Origin: Malacoraja senta | Taxonomy: Eukaryota | DNA: 64,000 nucleotides | Assembly: GCA_038087875.1 (NCBI GenBank) | Contig: CM075992.1 | Coordinates: 3,226,001 to 3,290,000, forward strand | Direction: 5' to 3' | In this document: positions 3,051 through 64,000 of the stretch, in pieces | How positions within the stretch are numbered: position 1 is the stretch's first letter | How the letters are laid out: every line of letters begins with the position of its first letter | The notes under the pieces: generated by a model | Seen by the model: only the letters and a program-made list of their open reading frames with translations | What the model was told of the DNA's origin: nothing | The model's database searches: none | Program-made: the position numbers and the translations under genes

Positions 3051-3310
3051 CTTAACAGCTGCGTTAAGCAACATGTTTGGGCAGCGACATTATCTCAAGG
3101 TGCAACAGTCAAAGGTGGATGGCTTAGGAAATCATTGTGCAAAATAGGTGGTCTACATGTCAATCGTCAATGTCATTCTTTGTATTTAACATGTTTAGAA
3201 ATATTTAGTTACTTGGATAAATATTAAACTGCTCTATATGCAAGTCTTCCTCTCTAAACATTTTCCGATTTCTTTTTCTTTGCCTAAATGATCAGCTTTT
3301 ATTGACATAG

Positions 3311-3552
3311 GGCTCGGAACAGACCTCAGCACGACCACACAGTCGGGTGACCTCCCTCCGAAGGAGAAGGACCGGGAGCGAGGAAGGACCAAGGACAGGA
3401 AGCACCACCACCACCACCACCACCACCACCACACGTCGTCCGACAAGGAGCGTTATTCCCAGGAGCGGCACGAGTACAGCAGACCTCGATCAAGGGAGAG
3501 GCGGTGGTCTCGGTCACCGAGTGCAGGGCGCGAGTGTGTCCCCCATCGACAG
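3311..3552 (+). CDS. CACNA1A: Cav2.1 alpha-1A subunit, penultimate exon (equivalent to human exon 46), with His10 tract
   Basis: AG at 3309-3310 and GT at 3553-3554. Translates [31 protein letters not shown](H)10[11 protein letters not shown]...[17 protein letters not shown], matching the recalled human exon 46. Confidence 0.95.
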
Positions 3553-3904
3553 GTGGGTCTGCAGGCTTCACACACCGTGGCTGCTCAAAGAACTCTAGAC
3601 AATTGTGTCGCTGCGGCCACAGTGGAACTGGCAAGTGGGATGACCCAGTAGAGATCATTCAACCTTTGTTGCAGAAAAATATATTACTGATATCCTTAAC
3701 TCCACGATGTACCACCTTATAGAAACACCACCTTTCCCTAAATTACAACCTCAATCCCCCCCCCCAATATTATCAGTTACCCTTGCATTAAATGACTGAC
3801 TTTTATCCTAGACCCGACAGGTTTTACCGATCCCTTAAAACTTTATTCAGAAAGATTCAAGCACAGTGCCACACAGTTTATGATTAACTGTGGCACGGTT
3901 AACT

Positions 3905-6328: not shown

Positions 6329-6338
6329 AGGGCAGTAG
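6329..6338 (+). promoter_or_regulatory. CACNA1A: Tandem splice acceptors AG|GGCAG|TAG controlling long versus short Cav2.1 C-terminus
   Basis: Sequence is ctAG GGCAG TAG tt. The upstream exon ends in phase 0, so use of the second AG places TAG in frame. Confidence 0.9.
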
Positions 6339-7035
6339 TTCTGTGAGTGGGAGTCCAGTTCCTTCCACTTCTGGTACCAGCACACCGAGGAGGGGACGTA
6401 GGCAACTCCCCCAGACTCCTTCCACGCCTAGGCCTCATGTCACCTACTCCCCCGTGGTCCGCAAGGCCATGAACACATCGCAGCAGCAGCAGCAGCAACA
6501 ACAGCAGCAGCAACAGCAGCAGCAGCAGCAGCAACAGGGCAGGACACCGACCCCTGTGCCACGCCGGTACTCACCCCCTCCCCCGGAGCACCACAGGGGC
6601 GAGAGGCACGGCGACGGTGGCGGTGGCGGCGGCGGCAGCCGGTCCCCCGGCACGGAGAGAGGCGGCGCCCCTCGCAACGGCTCCCCCCGTCTACATCGCC
6701 AGAGCAGCGGCCAGTGGTCCACCCCCAGCTCCCACCTCTCCGAGCCTTACCTGGGTTGCCACGACGACGACTATTACCGGAGCGCCGACTACGACGTGGC
6801 GTCGAGGGAGGAGACTCTGACCTTCGAGGTGGCCATGGCGACGAGTTCCGGGAGGTCGCCGAGGACTTGTCGGGCGCCGCAGTCCTCCTCCTCCTCAGTG
6901 TCCCTCCCCAGACACGGGCGCCGGGTGCCCAACGGGTACTACCACAACCTGGGCCCGAACAAAACGCGAGGGCCCGGCGCAAGGAAAGGGATGCACGAAC
7001 CCTACAGTGAGACCGACGAGGACGACTGGTGCTAG
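6331..7035 (+). CDS. CACNA1A: Cav2.1 alpha-1A subunit, terminal exon (long isoform, equivalent to human exon 47)
   Basis: Long polypyrimidine tract and AG at 6329-6330. Translates GSSSVSGSPVPSTSGTSTPRRGRRQLPQTPSTPRPHVTYSPVVRK...(Q)19...RHGRRVPNGYY...RKGMHEPYSETDEDDWC*, with the RQLPQTP RIM-BP motif and the DDWC PDZ ligand. Confidence 0.97.
   Translation, partial: GSSSVSGSPVPSTSGTSTPRRGRRQLPQTPSTPRPHVTYSPVVRKAMNTSQQQQQQQQQQQQQQQQQQQGRTPTPVPRRYSPPPPEHHRGERHGDGGGGGGGSRSPGTERGGAPRNGSPRLHRQSSGQWSTPSSHLSEPYLGCHDDDYYRSADYDVASREETLTFEVAMATSSGRSPRTCRAPQSSSSSVSLPRHGRRVPNGYYHNLGPNKTRGPGARKGMHEPYSETDEDDWC
6481..6537 (+). repeat. Coding CAG/CAA repeat, 19 Gln
   Basis: (CAG)5(CAA)2(CAG)3CAA(CAG)6CAA CAG, counted directly. 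Confidence 0.97.
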
Positions 7036-37513: not shown

Positions 37514-37713
37514 NNNNNNNNNNNNNNNNNNNNNNNNNNNNNNNNNNNNNNNNNNNNNNNNNNNNNNNNNNNNNNNNNNNNNNNNNNNNNNNNNNNNNNN
37601 NNNNNNNNNNNNNNNNNNNNNNNNNNNNNNNNNNNNNNNNNNNNNNNNNNNNNNNNNNNNNNNNNNNNNNNNNNNNNNNNNNNNNNNNNNNNNNNNNNNN
37701 NNNNNNNNNNNNN
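37514..37713. other. Assembly gap (200 N)
   Basis: Run of exactly 200 N; the left contig ends inside a young CR1 copy. Confidence 1.
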
Positions 37714-39416: not shown

Positions 39417-39551
39417 CTCGGAGGACCAATCTGGGCTGAACAGATCCACGACCAGGATTTCACCAGGAAAGTCCTGGAATCGGTGGAACAAACCCCACAG
39501 CGGTTCAAGACTTCAGACCGGATACTGGGCATGCTGAGCATGGTGACCGAG
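39417..39551 (+). CDS. TRMT1: tRNA (guanine26-N2)-dimethyltransferase, internal exon (first visible)
   Basis: AG/GT bounded, 135 nt: LGGPIWAEQIHDQDFTRKVLESVEQTPQRFKTSDRILGMLSMVTE. Confidence 0.95.
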
Positions 39552-41452: not shown

Positions 41453-41538
41453 GAGTTACCGGATTGCCCTCTCTACCACACGATGGATCACCTCAGCAGT
41501 ATCATCCACTGCAGCACCCCGTCGCTCCTGCAGATGAG
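41453..41538 (+). CDS. TRMT1: TRMT1 internal exon
   Basis: AG/GT bounded, 86 nt, phase-consistent: [29 protein letters not shown]. Confidence 0.95.
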
Positions 41539-42418: not shown

Positions 42419-42527
42419 GTCGTCGTTGCTTCACGCTGGCTATCGCGTGTCACTCTCCCACGCATGTAAAAACGCGGTCAAAACCGACGCACCGCATTCG
42501 GTGATGTGGGATATCATGAGGAGCTGG
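42419..42527 (+). CDS. TRMT1: TRMT1 internal exon
   Basis: AG/GT bounded, 109 nt: [36 protein letters not shown]. Confidence 0.96.
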
Positions 42528-43348: not shown

Positions 43349-43425
43349 GCAAAGATCCACCCAGTGAAGCGAGAGAAACTGTCCGAGAGTAGCCCTGCCT
43401 TCCGCATCCTCAGCAAGGAGCCGGT
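43349..43425 (+). CDS. TRMT1: TRMT1 internal exon
   Basis: AG/GTAAG bounded, 77 nt: AKIHPVKREKLSESSPAFRILSKEPV. Confidence 0.95.
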
Positions 43426-46100: not shown

Positions 46101-46215
46101 CGGAGGAATCCATCCTTGTCTGGAAGAGAAAAGGAAGCGGCTGCAGAACAAACGGAAGCAGCGCAATGAAGATGCGGAGCATGGAAAGCAAATCGTCTGC
46201 AAAAAGCCCAGAGAG
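46101..46215 (+). CDS. TRMT1: TRMT1 penultimate exon (basic region and first zinc-finger Cys)
   Basis: AG/GTAAG bounded, 115 nt: GGIHPCLEEKRKRLQNKRKQRNEDAEHGKQIVCKKPRE. Confidence 0.92.
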
Positions 46216-46988
46216 GTAAGAAGACGTATCTGTGGTGAGGCTCCTGTAGAACAGGACTGGTCCCTTCCAGTGCTCAGAGCTCCAATACATGGGGGCTTAC
46301 AGCAGGCATCCATGATGTGGAAGAAGGAACGGCAGATGCTGGTTAAAACCAAAGATAGACACAAAGTGCTGGAGTAACTCAGCAGGACAGGCAGCATCTC
46401 TGGGGAGAGGGAATGGGTGACGTTTCTTCAGACTCTGAAGAGGGGTCTCGACCCGAAACGTCACCCATTCCTTCTCTCCAATGACACTGCTTGTCCCGCT
46501 GAGTTACTCCAGCATTCTGTGTCTGCCTTAGGTGAGGTCAGGTCAGATGCATGAACCATTAATCCCGACACTCAAACTTCCCTGCATTGATCTGGTAGCC
46601 ATACTCGGGCTTTAGTTTTTGTCTAGAGAGACAGCACGGAAACAGCCCCTTCAGCCCACCAAGTCCATGCCGACCATTGGTCACCCGTTCACACTAGATC
46701 TAATGTTGTCCCACTTTCTCATCCATTCCCTTCACAATAGGGGCAATTCTACAGTGGGAAGGAGATGAGGAGACGTGTCTTTAGTCAGAGGGTGGTGAAT
46801 CTGTGGAATTCTTTGCCACAGAAGGCTATGGAGGCCAAGTCAGTGGATATTATTATGGCAGAGATAGATTTTTGATTAGTACGGGTGTCTGGTGTTAGGG
46901 AGAGAAAGCAGGAGAATGGGGTTAAGACGGAGAGATAGATCAGCCATGATTGAATGGCGGAGTAGACTTGATGGGCCGAATGGCCTAA

Positions 46989-47513
46989 AGCCCCTGTCCC
47001 ACTTTCACGACCTAATTGGCGACCTCTGCCGAGTTTGCCCTTGACTCATACTCGCAGCATGGTCGCCACGAGGTCGTAGGTAGGTCTTCGTAACTCTTCC
47101 TCATGCTCGTGAGTGGTCTCCGCGTACTCGTGACCTCAAGTAGGTCGCGGCGTTTTTTCCAGCCTGATAAAAAATGTCCACGAGTAAAAAAAAGTCGGCA
47201 TGGAAAAAACGGATACTTTTTACTCTAAAGTAGTTCGTAGTAGGCCGTGATGGTAGTCGTAGATAATCGTAGATAGTCGGTAACTGGCCCGAGAAAAAAA
47301 TGCAAACATGGCATCATTTTATCATATGGTCATTTTCCACTCGTAGCTAGTCGTAGCTGGTCTTAGGTGTGGAAGACTGAGGTCGTAGGAGGTCGTAGAC
47401 ATAGTCATAGGATGTCTTTTACTTTGGCGAGTCAACACGACCGTGACATTTTTTTCAACTCGTCTAGGGTCTTCTATACCCGTGGATTAGGTCGTCCAAG
47501 TGGGACAGGCCCT
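46989..47513. mobile_element. Harbinger-like MITE inserted in a CR1 tail
   Basis: TAA-AGCCCCTGTCCCACT ... AGTGGGACAGGCCCT-TTA, interrupting the consensus ggccTAAttctgctcct. Confidence 0.8.
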
Positions 47514-47584
47514 TTATTCTGCTCCTGCGTCTTCTGGACAAGAGTGGGAGGCAATGGGTTTAACTATTCTCCTTCCTCACACAG

Positions 47585-47599
47585 GGTAACTGCACATAG
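47585..47599 (+). CDS. TRMT1: TRMT1 terminal exon coding part (GNCT*)
   Basis: Polypyrimidine tract plus CAG at 47582-47584. GGT AAC TGC ACA TAG GGA GAG TAC TGC aligns to recalled human GTCQRGDQC. AATAAA lies downstream. Confidence 0.75.
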   Translation, partial: GNCT

Positions 47600-47821
47600 G
47601 GAGAGTACTGCAGCTTGTACGATTACAGGAGGGCGAGGCGGTGGGGAAGAGGCCTCACGAGAGCTCTCCAGAACATGCATCCTCAGACCACCAGCTGTAA
47701 ATTGAGTCCACACCCTCGCTGTAAGTGTGCAGAATCTGTAAATGGAATGTAAAGTTCGCAACTCGACCCGGCCGGCCTGCAGTGTTTCAATTTTATTTTT
47801 AATTAAAAACTGCATTTTTTC

Positions 47822-47831
47822 AATAAATAAA
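47822..47831 (+). terminator. Overlapping poly(A) signals (AATAAATAAA), probable TRMT1 3' end
   Basis: About 220 nt after the stop, followed by a GT-rich stretch. Confidence 0.7.
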
Positions 47832-47896
47832 CCCGTAGCTGGTGTGTGATACGAGATAACGGAGACACAAGGGACTGTAGTTGCTTTGGCATGAGG

Positions 47897-47902
47897 TTTA
47901 TT
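47897..47902 (-). terminator. Candidate MAN2B1 poly(A) signal (AATAAA on minus)
   Basis: TTTATT on +, about 1.2 kb past the MAN2B1 stop; another at 47792-47797. Confidence 0.45.
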
Positions 47903-51282: not shown

Positions 51283-52978
51283 CTGAATGAAAAAGAGAGA
51301 TATAGAATTAGACGCCAGCTCTATCGTTAGCTGTTTTCTGCTTACCCCCCCCTCTCCCCTTGAATTTGGATGTAAATCTTCTCCAAGCAGTCTATGTAGA
51401 CCATGCTTTGAATGGCAGCGGGTATGAAACATAACATACATAGTGTGGAGGAAGGAACTGCAGGTGCTGGTTTAGACTGACGATAAGACACAAAGTGCTG
51501 GAAGGGGTGAGGGAAGATCAGAACTTGCACAGACAAACTCTGTCCTGCAATAATGAATGTACTTCGACAAACTTGCTGTGCGGGATATGAGCAAGGATTC
51601 ACTCCCTACCACTGGTACTTTATAATTGGTCCAAGGTCAGGTTTCAGAGCAACAGGGGTATTAAATTGGCGTTGGAAGGAACTGCAGATGCTGGTTTACC
51701 CCGAAGGTAGACACAAAATGCTGGAGTAACTCAGCGGGACAGGCAGCATCTCTGGAGAGAAGGAATACGTGATGTTTTGGGTTGGAACCCTTCTTCAGCC
51801 TGAAAGTGGGGGTGGGTGGGGTGGGGAATAAAGTGGGGGTGGGTGGGGTGGGGGAATAAAGTGGAGGTGAGTAATGGTCAGAACATTTTTGGGCTGGCAA
51901 CAGATGTCCACAGAAAGGGTGGATAGGGTGCCTAACAGTTGGCAAGGGAAGGTATGATAACAAGAAGGGGGAGGAAACCCACGTGATCACAGGAGAACAT
52001 GCAAACTCCACACGGACAGCACCCGTAGTCAGGATCGAACCCTGGTCTCTGGCGCTGTAAGGCAGCAACTCTACCGCTGCGCCACCGTGCCGCCCAAAGT
52101 CTCGCTTGTTCTGAGATACAGGGAAATATGGTTATCAGAGGACAGGGCTGTAGCCACAGAAGGCTGTGGAGGCCAAGTGAATGGGTATTTTTAAGGCAGC
52201 GATAGATAGATTCTTGATTAGTACGGGTTACGGGGAGAAGGCAGGTGAATGGGGTTAGGAGGGGGAGATAGATCAGCCATGATTGAATGGCAGAGTAGAC
52301 TTGATGGGCCGAATGGCCTAAATCTGCTGCCACCACAGGAAACTCAGAGAAAGCACGAGTACAGTCAAACCGCACAGGATCGTAACAGGTTCTAGAGGCA
52401 TGGAGGATGTGGGAAAAGCAAAAGAAAAACAGAATGTGAAGACACAAGAGACTGCAGATGCTGGAATCTCCAGCAAAGAATAAAGTGCTGGAGGAACATC
52501 AGCAGGCCAGGCTGGGGAGAGAAATGGATAAATGATGTTTCGGGGTCAAGAGCCTTCTTCCGACTGAAGAAGTCTGAAGAGAGGGTAGACAAAAATGCTG
52601 GAGAAACTCAGCGGGTGAGGCAGCATCTACGGAGCGAAGGAAATAGGCAACGTTTCGGGCCGAAACCTTTCTTCAGACTGATGTGAGGGTGGGGGGGGGG
52701 GGGGCGGGAAGTCTGAAGAGAGGTTGTACATGGGGTTCTACTTCTGCGCCAATGTGCCACACCTCATTCACAGCTGTAACTGCACTTTGGGTCAGCCCAT
52801 ATTCACTACAAAGTTTATACTCCATTGTATCGCCCTTTTAGGCTCACCCTACTTTAACTCCCAGCTCTTTGGACTGGTGGGATAAAAATTAACATGTTCA
52901 CATACAACAGAGATCTTCTCCACCTCCCCCTCTCACTGCCAGTCCATGGCTGTCCGCAAATACAGACGAGGAACCTAC

Positions 52979-53128
52979 AGACAGGTTGACAGTCTGGGGC
53001 TTGGAGTAGACTTGGCTCTCTCCCACTTCAAACTGATGCTCCAGCCGTAAGACCACCGTCTCGTTGTCCCACTGAGCCAGCGAGAGGAGGTGGATGTTGT
53101 GAGGTAGCTCCTCCTTCAGGGCTGTGAA
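52979..53128 (-). CDS. MAN2B1: MAN2B1 internal exon
   Basis: AG/GTAGGT bounded, 150 nt: FTALKEELPHNIHLLSLAQWDNETVVLRLEHQFEVGESQVYSKPQTVNLS. Confidence 0.93.
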
Positions 53129-53306
53129 CTGCAAGAGCCAGAGAAACAAGGTCCTTGTGAAGTGAAAATGAAAAACAACAGTCCATCGTGTACAAAATCA
53201 TAGATCGGGTACCTGTAAACTCCGCAAAGACAGCACCCGAGGTTAGCTCTGCCAGCTGCGCCACTGTGCTGCCCCTTCGGTGAATGGTATCTCCTGGATA
53301 TACTTA

Positions 53307-61416: not shown

Positions 61417-62313
61417 CTGTGAAATGGATGGGTGAAAAGGAATGCATTAAATCTCCAGCAAACGGCTTAAAATGATCATTGAGGAACACATTCAATCTCA
61501 CACACATTCCCACCCCCCCCTGCCATCCCATTTCCGCACCAGACTGGATCTTTGTTTGGTTGAGAGATACAGCGCGGAAACTGGCCCTTCCGCCCACCGA
61601 GTCGGCGCCGACCACCGATCCCCGCACACTAGCACTATCCTGCACACACACACACTAGGGACAATTTACAATCATACCAAGCCAATTAACCTACAAACCT
61701 GCACGTCTTTGGAGTGTGGGAGGAAACCGGAGATCCCAGGGAAAACCCAGGCGGGTCACGGGGAGAGCGTACAGACTCCGTACAGACGGCACCCGTAGTC
61801 AGGATCGAACCCGGATCACTGGCAGCTCTACCACCACACCACCGTGCCGCCCCGAAACATCTATGGCAAAGTCCCCGTCTTTGGCAAACCTGCCCGGCAG
61901 ATTCGCATTGGGCCACGTGTTCCCAGGCCCATTATCTGTCATTAATCCTTAAAAACATTATAAGACATTCGGCGGCACGGTGGCCCAGCGGTAGAGTTGC
62001 TGCCTCCCTGAGTTTGTACGTTCTCCCCGTGACCTGCGTGGGTTTTCTCCGGGTGCTCCGGCTTCCTCCCAGACCCCAAAGACGTACAGGTTTGTAGGAT
62101 AATTGGCTTTGGTGTAAGTGTAAAATGTCCCCAGTGTGTTAATGTGCGGGGATCGCTGGGAGGTGCGGACTGGGTGGGCCGAAGGGCCTGTTTCTGTGCT
62201 GTATCTCTAAACAAAACTCTGTGGATTGCCCCGATCTTGGTGTAAACTTTGCAGGGAACAATCTTGCAGCCAGCGAGCTGCTTTCCCCAAGCACAACAAT
62301 GCTCGGACCTCAC

Positions 62314-62431
62314 CTCGATTTTGTAGACGTTGGCCTCTTTAGATAACGCGACGGGTATATCGTTACTCGGTCGGAAGATGTAGGCACCGGAGGCCTGGCT
62401 ACTGAGCCGGTCACCTGCGCTGGCACTGTAC
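62314..62431 (-). CDS. MAN2B1: MAN2B1 internal exon (most 5' visible; the gene continues beyond the window)
   Basis: AG/GTGAG bounded, 118 nt: YSASAGDRLSSQASGAYIFRPSNDIPVALSKEANVYKIE. Confidence 0.96.
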
Positions 62432-64000
62432 CTGTGCAAACACAATCAACAAGGAGGGTTCACCTGTAACTCCCGTCAGAACCATTGATCAAAAGATGCA
62501 GCGGGGAAACAGGCCCATCAGCCCACGCCGACCATCGATTACCCGTACACTAGTCCCGTGTTACGGGTATTTTCGAAGCAAAAAAAACAGAATCAAGCGA
62601 TATGGGGAGAAAGCAGGAACGGGGTACTAATTTTGGATGATCATCCATGATCATATTGGATACTGGCTCGAAGGGCCGAATGGCCTACTCCTGCACCGAT
62701 TTTCAATGCTTCTATGTTTAGTATTTTCTCCGGGTGCTCTGGTTTCTTCCCACACTCAAAGACGTACAGGTTTGGAGGTTAATTGAAGAAATATTGTAAA
62801 ATTGTCCCTAGTGTGTGGGCGGATAGTGGATAGTGATAGCGAACAGGGTGATTGCCGGAGACCCGGTTCGATCCCGACTACGGGTGCTGTCTGTACGGAG
62901 TTTGTACTTTCTCCCCGTGACCCGCGTGGGTTTTCTCCGAGATCTTCCGTTTCGTCCCACACTCCAAAGACGTGCAGGTTTGTAGGTTAATTGGCTTGGT
63001 AAATGTAAAAAAATGTCCCTAGTGGGTGTAGGATGGCGTTAATGTGCGGGGATCGCTGGTCGGCGCGGACGAAGGGACTGTTTCCGTGCTGCATCTCTAA
63101 AGTCTAAACATAGAAACATAGAATCATAGAAATTAGGTGCAGGAGTAGGCCATTCGGCCCTTCGAGCCTGCACCGCCATTCAATATGATCATGGCTGATC
63201 ATCCAACTCAGTATCCTGTACCTGCCTTCTCTCCATACCCCCTGATCCCTTTAGCCACAAGGGCCACATCTAACTCCCTCTTAAATATAGCCAATGAACT
63301 GGCCTCAACTACCTTCTGTGGCAGAGAATTCCACAGATTCACCACTCTCTGTGTGAAAAATGATTTTCTCATCTCGGTCCTAAAAGACTTCCTCCTTATC
63401 CTTAAACTGTGACCCCTTGTTCTGGACTTCCCCAACATCGGGAACAATCTTCCTGCATCTAGCCTGTCCAACCCCTTAAGAATTTTGTATGTTTCTATAA
63501 GAGTCTGGGACTCTGAAGATTTATCCCCTCACCCGCTATTTTCGGCAGTAGGTTCCAGACTCCCACCCCCCTCAGTGGGAAGTAGTTTTCCTCAACCTCC
63601 TCTCCAATTCGTCCTTTTTCCAATTATCAGGAGCGCGATCTGATTATCCCAGGATTCCAATGGGATGGGGAACCAATGGGTTTCTGTTCATCTTCTTTGG
63701 ACCTTGCGTGGGGATCTCAGGAGTGGTTCAATCAAAACATCCCCGACCCACACCTTAAACTTCTCGTGAAACATTGACGTTTTGTTTCTTTTGGCCCTTC
63801 GTCCCACCGGGTCCGCGCCGACCAGCGATCCCCGCACATTAACGCCTCCCTACACCCACTAGGGACAATTTTTACATTTACCAAGCCAATTAACCTACAA
63901 ACCTGCACGTCTTTGGAATGTGGGAGGAAACCGAAGATCTCGGAGAAAACCCATGTGGGTCACGGGGACAACGTACAAACTCCGTACAGACAGCACCCGT

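Follow-up and report, generated by a model that had tools for sequence, protein, structure and literature searches.

Human TRMT1, which encodes the tRNA G26 dimethyltransferase, is a gene for neurodevelopmental disease, and its product is targeted by the coronavirus main protease. Cleavage of human TRMT1 at Q530 abolishes its activity (D'Oliviera et al., PMC11706605; Zhang et al., PMC11139479; Lu and Zhou, PMC10399916) and lowers tRNA affinity approximately 6-fold (PMC11706605). The human C-terminal fragment holding the CCCH zinc finger binds tRNA alone (PMC11139479). In the available portions of these papers and of bioRxiv 10.1101/817247, in which patient frameshift alleles are cited, the Q530 cut and the frameshift alleles are interpreted as loss of the "zinc finger domain". 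In the accessible part of a report on a cohort of 43 patients, every variant falls inside the methyltransferase domain (PMC12120178). Perez et al. state, in the text at hand, that both domains are required; they left C620/C621 unmutated because they expected inactivation (bioRxiv 10.1101/2022.04.26.489575). According to the same partial text, treatment with a covalent ligand for human C620/C621 reduced m2,2G, an effect that was rescued by overexpression of TRMT1; approximately 60 cysteines were hit. The reactivity of C620/C621 falls upon fumarate accumulation as well as with the covalent ligand. The covalent-ligand result is the best evidence against a dispensable finger.

The position of the finger relative to the cut site is important for the reading of these results. 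The protein P0259, which carries the published cut-site peptide, has 129 residues after the Gln. This fits a total of 659 residues with the finger at 606-624, and the reported C620/C621 fits the numbering derived from P0259. The human finger motif given in the earlier note on this DNA matches the same protein, whose post-cut length fits human numbering. Of the 129 residues lost by the Q530 cut, 75 precede the finger; skates keep 80 residues past the same point. Since the cut also takes the nearly invariant WGP motif, the human evidence does not isolate the finger. The role of the finger in m2,2G26 formation, which the note had called established, is therefore supported less strongly than stated: in the portions of the sources available, the evidence consists of much larger truncations, and one group left the finger cysteines unmutated because the outcome was assumed. 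A literature search, judged by titles and the beginnings of abstracts, found no study of a TRMT1 mutant altered in the finger only. Nothing on the finger was found in the accessible parts of PMC8287941, PMC10608323, PMC13228390, PMC10275265, and bioRxiv 10.1101/2024.05.20.594868. The search, which left out most subscription papers, also found no paper on loss of the TRMT1 finger in skates, turtles, or alligators.

The window, which is the whole stretch of 64,000 nt analyzed here, contains the last seven exons of TRMT1 on the + strand (Table 1). These exons (the last one coding at 47585-47599) all have AG/GT boundaries and encode 218 residues without an internal stop, ending in VCKKPREGNCT and the stop codon. 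The six exons upstream of the last one had been described as intact and phase-consistent, and they indeed have AG/GT ends, open frames, and agreeing phases. The donor after 46215 is GTAAGA. Exons for residues 1-422 were not found in the window by two tblastn searches, the sensitive one of which, for residues 1-430, gave only the known exon start. A gap of 200 N at 37514-37713, 1.7 kb ahead of the first visible TRMT1 exon, probably hides the 5' two-thirds of the gene (residues 1-422).

Table 1. TRMT1 features in the 64,000-nt window (residues in the numbering of the skate orthologues)
Feature	Positions	Strand	Remarks
TRMT1 coding exon	39417..39551	+	first in window; residues 424-468; tblastn 100% to skate proteins; AG/GT, phase 0
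TRMT1 coding exon	41453..41538	+	tblastn, AG/GT ends; ends in phase 2
TRMT1 coding exon	42419..42527	+	end of Pfam TRM domain; ends in phase 0
TRMT1 coding exon	43349..43425	+	tblastn, AG/GT ends; ends in phase 2
TRMT1 exon with the eukaryote-wide RFQxNP..WGP segment	44734..44853	+	intact; 100% to skate proteins; its start is the equivalent of the human Q530 cut site
TRMT1 penultimate exon	46101..46215	+	basic KRK stretch, first finger Cys, Phe-to-Pro (F635P)
Splice acceptor CAG of last TRMT1 exon	47582..47584	+	phase 0; upstream pyrimidine fraction 0.79
Last TRMT1 exon, coding part GNCT with second finger Cys	47585..47596	+	codons read
Premature TAG	47597..47599	+	Tyr codon in Rhinoraja and other batoids; protein end is residue 641
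Untranslated remnant of finger second half	47600..47625	+	third Cys codon kept; former His codon is GAT at 47621-47623; net 1-base deletion at about 47624-47626
Remnant of old C-terminal tail and old stop TAA (47698-47700)	47626..47700	+	out of frame, in 3' UTR; tblastn
AATAAA, candidate polyadenylation signal	47822..47827	+	motif scan; ATTAAA also at 47802

Exons resembling other genes are also present in the window. Two frames on the + strand (3292-3651 and 6331-7035) have a poly-His run and a poly-Gln run and end in ETDEDDWC and a stop; Pfam was uninformative for them. We take these frames to resemble the last exons of CACNA1A, and CACNA1A upstream on the same strand would presumably fit the human TRMT1 neighborhood. 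On the - strand, exons resembling lysosomal alpha-mannosidase MAN2B1 are found at 52898-53197 and 61942-62445. The former has a weak match to the Pfam glycosyl hydrolase 38 C-terminal domain (E 0.0011, below the cut-off), and the latter has none.

The codons from 47585 read GGT AAC TGC ACA TAG GGA GAG TAC TGC AGC TTG TAC GAT. Both the TAG after the second finger Cys and the GAT (Asp) in place of His, which the earlier note had reported, are confirmed by direct reading. The translated product has two Cys before the stop, leaving C-x7-C-x5-C-x3-H incomplete, and hence falls outside the CCCH definition. In comparison with the intact Rhinoraja protein, there is a net deletion of 1 base downstream of the third Cys codon and before the old tail. 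Scoring at the protein level confines this deletion to 47612-47626. The solution with the fewest nucleotide changes puts it at 47624-47626, immediately behind GAT, so that GAT is probably the former His codon. The old tail is identical to that of Rhinoraja in 21 of 24 residues, in another frame. Differences from Rhinoraja are seen in 8 of the 33 codons behind the stop versus 11 of the 218 in the coding part. Thus, all three lesions that had been listed before (stop, H to D, and F to P) are present in the DNA. However, H to D lies behind the stop and does not change the protein, and the 1-base deletion is a fourth lesion that had been missed. The His-to-Asp change and the deletion are later decay of the new 3' UTR and are untranslated. 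The order of events for His-to-Asp follows from its position after the stop and from the public sequencing run X18, whose contig still has CAT there. This contig has C at 47617 and 47621 (CAT, His) and no gap in the finger region, so that X18 shares the deletion and not the His change. Nonsense-mediated decay normally spares stops in the last exon. The TRMT1 stop is in the last exon, and the mRNA should therefore escape this decay.

The stop is found in other skates. An exon search of proteins gave 15 candidates, 13 of which were TRMT1; the cluster of the best match comprises 47 proteins; 40 of these were read and 15 are listed. All but one of the 15 listed members are proteins of 641 aa that end in CKKPREGKCT. 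They are Amblyraja radiata XP_032906639.1 (P0015/P0016 are among those sharing this end), Leucoraja erinacea XP_055520153.1, a RefSeq model with a low-quality flag, and 12 Logan proteins, which are close to Leucoraja and do not represent independent species. The Logan proteins are encoded on contigs of 2.1-2.9 kb, lengths that would correspond to spliced mRNA. The remaining member, Rhinoraja longicauda XP_078285416.1, has an intact finger. Rhinoraja is a softnose skate (Arhynchobatidae) that keeps the whole C-x7-C-x5-C-x3-H finger with F at residue 635, and the finger is also intact in 6 other named batoids. Amblyraja belongs to the Rajidae, where Leucoraja is presumably placed alongside it. 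No intact-finger protein from a hardnose skate was present among the protein-search matches listed. Proteins of other skates, obtained independently, end at this very codon, which excludes chance. The earlier proposal of a lineage-specific loss rather than a sequencing error is supported by the same stop and the same Phe-to-Pro change in Amblyraja, Leucoraja, and the 12 Logan proteins. Judged from these proteins, the loss is common to several hardnose skates and not private to this genome. The truncated skate TRMT1 is already in RefSeq, without comment in the names shown.

The 218 residues of the window differ from Leucoraja at 6 positions, from Amblyraja at 7, and from Rhinoraja at 11. P635 of the window is common to Amblyraja and Leucoraja. 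N639 is ancestral in the window and is K in both, which suggests that the window branches outside the Amblyraja-Leucoraja pair. Because P635 is shared but N639 is ancestral, the stop is probably older than the split between these two skates.

Public sequencing runs provide further evidence on the last exon. One contig of the DNA-type run X2 covers 47497-47900 without a gap and with 1 differing letter, whose place is not listed; it very probably confirms the TAG. For runs X18, X20, and X21, the RNA status is a guess of the tool, and differences near the ends of aligned pieces are not listed, so that the TAG is not directly readable in them. Contig 16 of X20 (2250 bases) passes from 46213 straight to 47583. 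Given the shared AG, this contig from a relative joins the exons at the predicted 46215-47585 junction, a check that the earlier note had proposed. In the last exon, X20 carries an additional base whose position is not listed. At 46166, X18 and X20 both differ from the window, with Asn621 replaced by Thr and Ser, respectively, unlike in all listed skate proteins. X18 and X20 probably represent further skate lineages.

The window shows the gene's own copy for residues 424-641 only, and the view that the gene is a working one is supported via its orthologues. The window exons are 97% identical to the skate orthologues over these residues. The SAM-binding and DPYG motifs are intact in the Amblyraja, Leucoraja, and Logan proteins and lie outside the part covered by the window. 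The skate orthologues P0001 and P0015 score 465-466 bits with Pfam TRM (PF02005), for which the cut-off is 27. With Pfam zf-CCCH, the Rhinoraja protein (P0014) scores 24.4 bits (cut-off 20.5), and P0001 and P0015 have no match at E up to 1. The predicted structure of the truncated protein P0001 has a mean pLDDT of 85.8, with 96-98 for residues 561-580, which immediately follow the equivalent of the cut site, and 72-82 for residues 581-600. The top 5 structure matches of this model are Trm1 of Pyrococcus and Aquifex. The catalytic core does not appear to have sped up in skates. In core-domain trees at the protein level, in which the window itself was not a row, the stem of the two named hardnose skates measures 0.009 changes per column and their tips 0.008 and 0.002, versus 0.025 for Rhinoraja.

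These features are not those of a unitary pseudogene. The six upstream exons are open, in phase, and bounded by AG/GT, and the orthologues are full length; the 5' exons of this copy are missing from the window. An accelerated core, as expected of a pseudogene, is not seen, as the core branches of skates are no longer than that of Rhinoraja at the protein level. Spliced transcripts appear to exist in relatives, as judged from the X20 contig (RNA status guessed) and the 12 Logan proteins on contigs of mRNA size. Indirectly, therefore, the gene can be regarded as working. The skate gene is a TRMT1 orthologue and, by definition, neither a CCCH-finger protein nor a pseudogene.

Loss of the finger is not restricted to skates. 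A comparison of TRMT1 proteins across skates, rays, and sharks, similar to the alignment proposed in the earlier note, showed both the shared skate loss and other losses. Among the 21 named chondrichthyan species fetched, the finger is intact in 14 and is not in 2 skates and 5 carpet sharks. All five carpet sharks (Rhincodon, Stegostoma, two Chiloscyllium, and Hemiscyllium; P0009, P0031, P0042, P0212-P0220) have lost it by short in-frame deletions. The motif is absent from the fetched proteins of all 22 species of cryptodire turtles, with His-to-Pro changes and losses of Cys (among P0089-P0107 and P0221-P0257). The branch support for the cryptodires is 92/78. The finger is intact in Emydura and Pelusios; the suborder labels of turtles, cryptodire and side-necked, are those we assume to apply. 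Both species of Alligator have Cys-to-Ser and His-to-Arg changes (P0096, P0201-P0210). A tree in which the skate and carpet-shark losses are held monophyletic is rejected (p-AU 0.0002; the group was named after the first tree had been seen). Chimaera, crocodile, and gharial proteins were absent from the protein matches listed.

A further 84 vertebrate proteins from birds, squamates, teleosts, and mammals all retain the finger (84 of 84); they come from the best 120 of 436 matches to a query that included the finger region, a sample thus biased to intact fingers. This conservation implies purifying selection on the finger in most lineages. Ten vertebrate rows without CCCH were not counted as losses and look like isoform or gene-model artefacts. 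They are Xenopus laevis P0088 and Astyanax P0099-P0101 and P0111, two species for which other models are intact, as well as Hyla P0102, Leptobrachium P0105, Spea P0108, Gastrophryne P0112, and Sphenodon P0114. Manta and devil rays (Mobula P0002 and P0030) have a tandem repeat of approximately 14 residues expanded behind an intact finger, with a copy number that differs by species.

Of the best 150 distant Trm1 representatives at 50% identity, 70 have the RFQxNP..WGP tail by pattern match. The CCCH finger follows the tail in 12 of these 70, and the other 58 have no finger. On this count, the finger is optional across eukaryotic Trm1. In an alignment of 127 sequences, invariance reaches at least 90% at P586, W590, G591, and P592 (skate numbering) and at none of the finger residues.

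The most likely explanation, which we hold with good though incomplete confidence on the basis of these comparisons, is that the 641-residue skate TRMT1 still makes m2,2G26 without the finger, using the WGP segment and the basic helix in addition to the catalytic domain. The Tyr codon at the center of the finger changed to TAG and became fixed in an ancestor of the sampled hardnose skates that lived after their separation from Rhinoraja. It was accompanied by the Phe-to-Pro change in the first half of the finger, and both changes are shown for three lineages. The product has 641 residues with the whole methyltransferase domain, the RFQxNP..WGP segment, the basic KRK helix, and two of the four zinc ligands. 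The rest of the finger has become 3' UTR and is decaying, as seen in the 1-base deletion and the change in the His codon. Without the finger, the tRNA would be held by the catalytic domain together with the WGP segment and the basic helix, as presumably must be the case in many finger-less eukaryotic Trm1 enzymes. The finger would serve as an accessory module for binding or regulation, and selection on it would be weak enough to have allowed at least four losses in vertebrates; the losses are observed, and weak selection is their proposed cause. That the finger is dispensable for catalysis is likewise likely.

Among other explanations, the best surviving is that the finger matters and that skate TRMT1 is a tolerated hypomorph, in which m2,2G26 is reduced or restricted to some tRNAs or another factor supplies the binding. 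The 84 intact vertebrate proteins, in the biased sample noted above, favor this explanation. So do the statement in human papers that both domains are required and the lowering of m2,2G by the C620/C621 ligand (bioRxiv 10.1101/2022.04.26.489575), as well as the reduced tRNA affinity and abolished activity upon cleavage (PMC11706605), within the parts of these sources available. However, the human cuts also remove the ordered, nearly invariant WGP segment, the trees show no acceleration of the core in any of the four lineages, and 58 of the 70 distant Trm1 proteins with the tail do without a finger. A hypomorph is therefore unlikely, although it deserves some weight.

A bolder reading is that the finger stands outside the tRNA-methylating machinery and is a detachable, cysteine-reactive regulatory switch. 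The RFQxNP..WGP segment and the basic helix would then be the part of the C-terminus that is truly needed, and four lineages would have shed the finger independently, possibly because with it tRNA methylation responded to low-oxygen metabolites or oxidants. We consider this quite unlikely. In the related proposal of adaptive loss, the reactive finger cysteines would make the enzyme sensitive to electrophiles and oxidation, and their removal would have helped lineages exposed to low oxygen, namely bottom-dwelling skates and carpet sharks as well as diving turtles and alligators. Epaulette sharks, painted turtles, sliders, and alligators are tolerant to hypoxia or anoxia, and the four separate losses involve four different lesions. 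The decreased reactivity of human C620/C621 with fumarate and with the ligand, as described in the available text of bioRxiv 10.1101/2022.04.26.489575, points in the same direction. On the other hand, the finger persists in Carassius, Nannospalax, and aquatic side-necked turtles, and four events cannot separate ecology from drift in slow-breeding ectotherms. Furthermore, the whale shark is pelagic. Adaptive loss is accordingly given a small probability.

Bypass of the stop by the transcripts, through read-through, use of the TAG as an in-frame acceptor, or another terminal exon, would allow the finger to be made. The TAG at 47597-47599 does contain an in-frame AG, the frame behind it is open to 47752, and X18 still has the His codon. 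Use of the TAG as an acceptor would skip the stop and add 50 codons up to the TAA at 47750-47752; no contig showed this. The pyrimidine tract of such an acceptor is weak (0.42 versus 0.79), and its use would drop the second Cys. Read-through in this genome meets Asp for His and Pro for Phe. The X20 and X18 contigs take the upstream acceptor, all 12 listed Logan proteins end at the stop, and a second finger exon was not found in the window by tblastn with the intact Rhinoraja query. Bypass is thus highly improbable. Finally, an assembly error, a private allele, or a partial duplicate pseudogene with an intact TRMT1 elsewhere can be dismissed almost entirely: the 5' exons are absent from the window near the 200-N gap and the Leucoraja model is flagged low quality, but the same stop occurs in two RefSeq species and 12 transcript-derived proteins, the X2 contig matches with one difference, the matches listed include no intact-finger protein of a hardnose skate, and the six upstream exons show both conservation and agreeing phases.

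The four vertebrate lineages are natural finger deletion mutants in which everything before the finger is kept. They suggest that what is essential is probably the conserved WGP segment together with the basic helix. This bears on the reading of late truncating or finger-missense TRMT1 variants in patients. Domain loss at a protein end is a common event; here it comes as a surprise for specialists.

Skate TRMT1 shares features with several known systems and differs from each of them. Archaeal and bacterial Trm1 (PDB 2ytz, 2dul, and 3axs) have the same catalytic fold (E about 4e-29), and the match is confined to the catalytic domain. They are proteins of 378-392 aa with no match to the eukaryotic tail or the C-terminal CCCH finger. 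The human 1-530 fragment produced by the coronavirus main protease and the products of patient frameshifts lack the finger, as does the skate protein. They are inactive according to the portions of the sources available, and they also lack the 75 or more pre-finger residues that skates keep. In comparison with Rhinoraja and human TRMT1 and Pfam PF02005, the window is orthologous, with 207 of 218 residues identical to Rhinoraja, and the TRM domain, the WGP segment, and the basic stretch are present. The skate protein differs from Rhinoraja and human TRMT1 in that its last residue, 641, lies within the CCCH finger, leaving the third Cys, the His, and the tail untranslated. TRMT1 of Amblyraja and Leucoraja has the same stop position and the same F635P as the window, and differs from it in having K at position 639 in place of N. 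TRMT1 of carpet sharks, cryptodires, and Alligator resembles that of skates in having a destroyed CCCH finger behind a preserved WGP segment and basic stretch. The type of lesion differs, being a stop in skates only and deletions or substitutions in carpet sharks, cryptodires, and Alligator.
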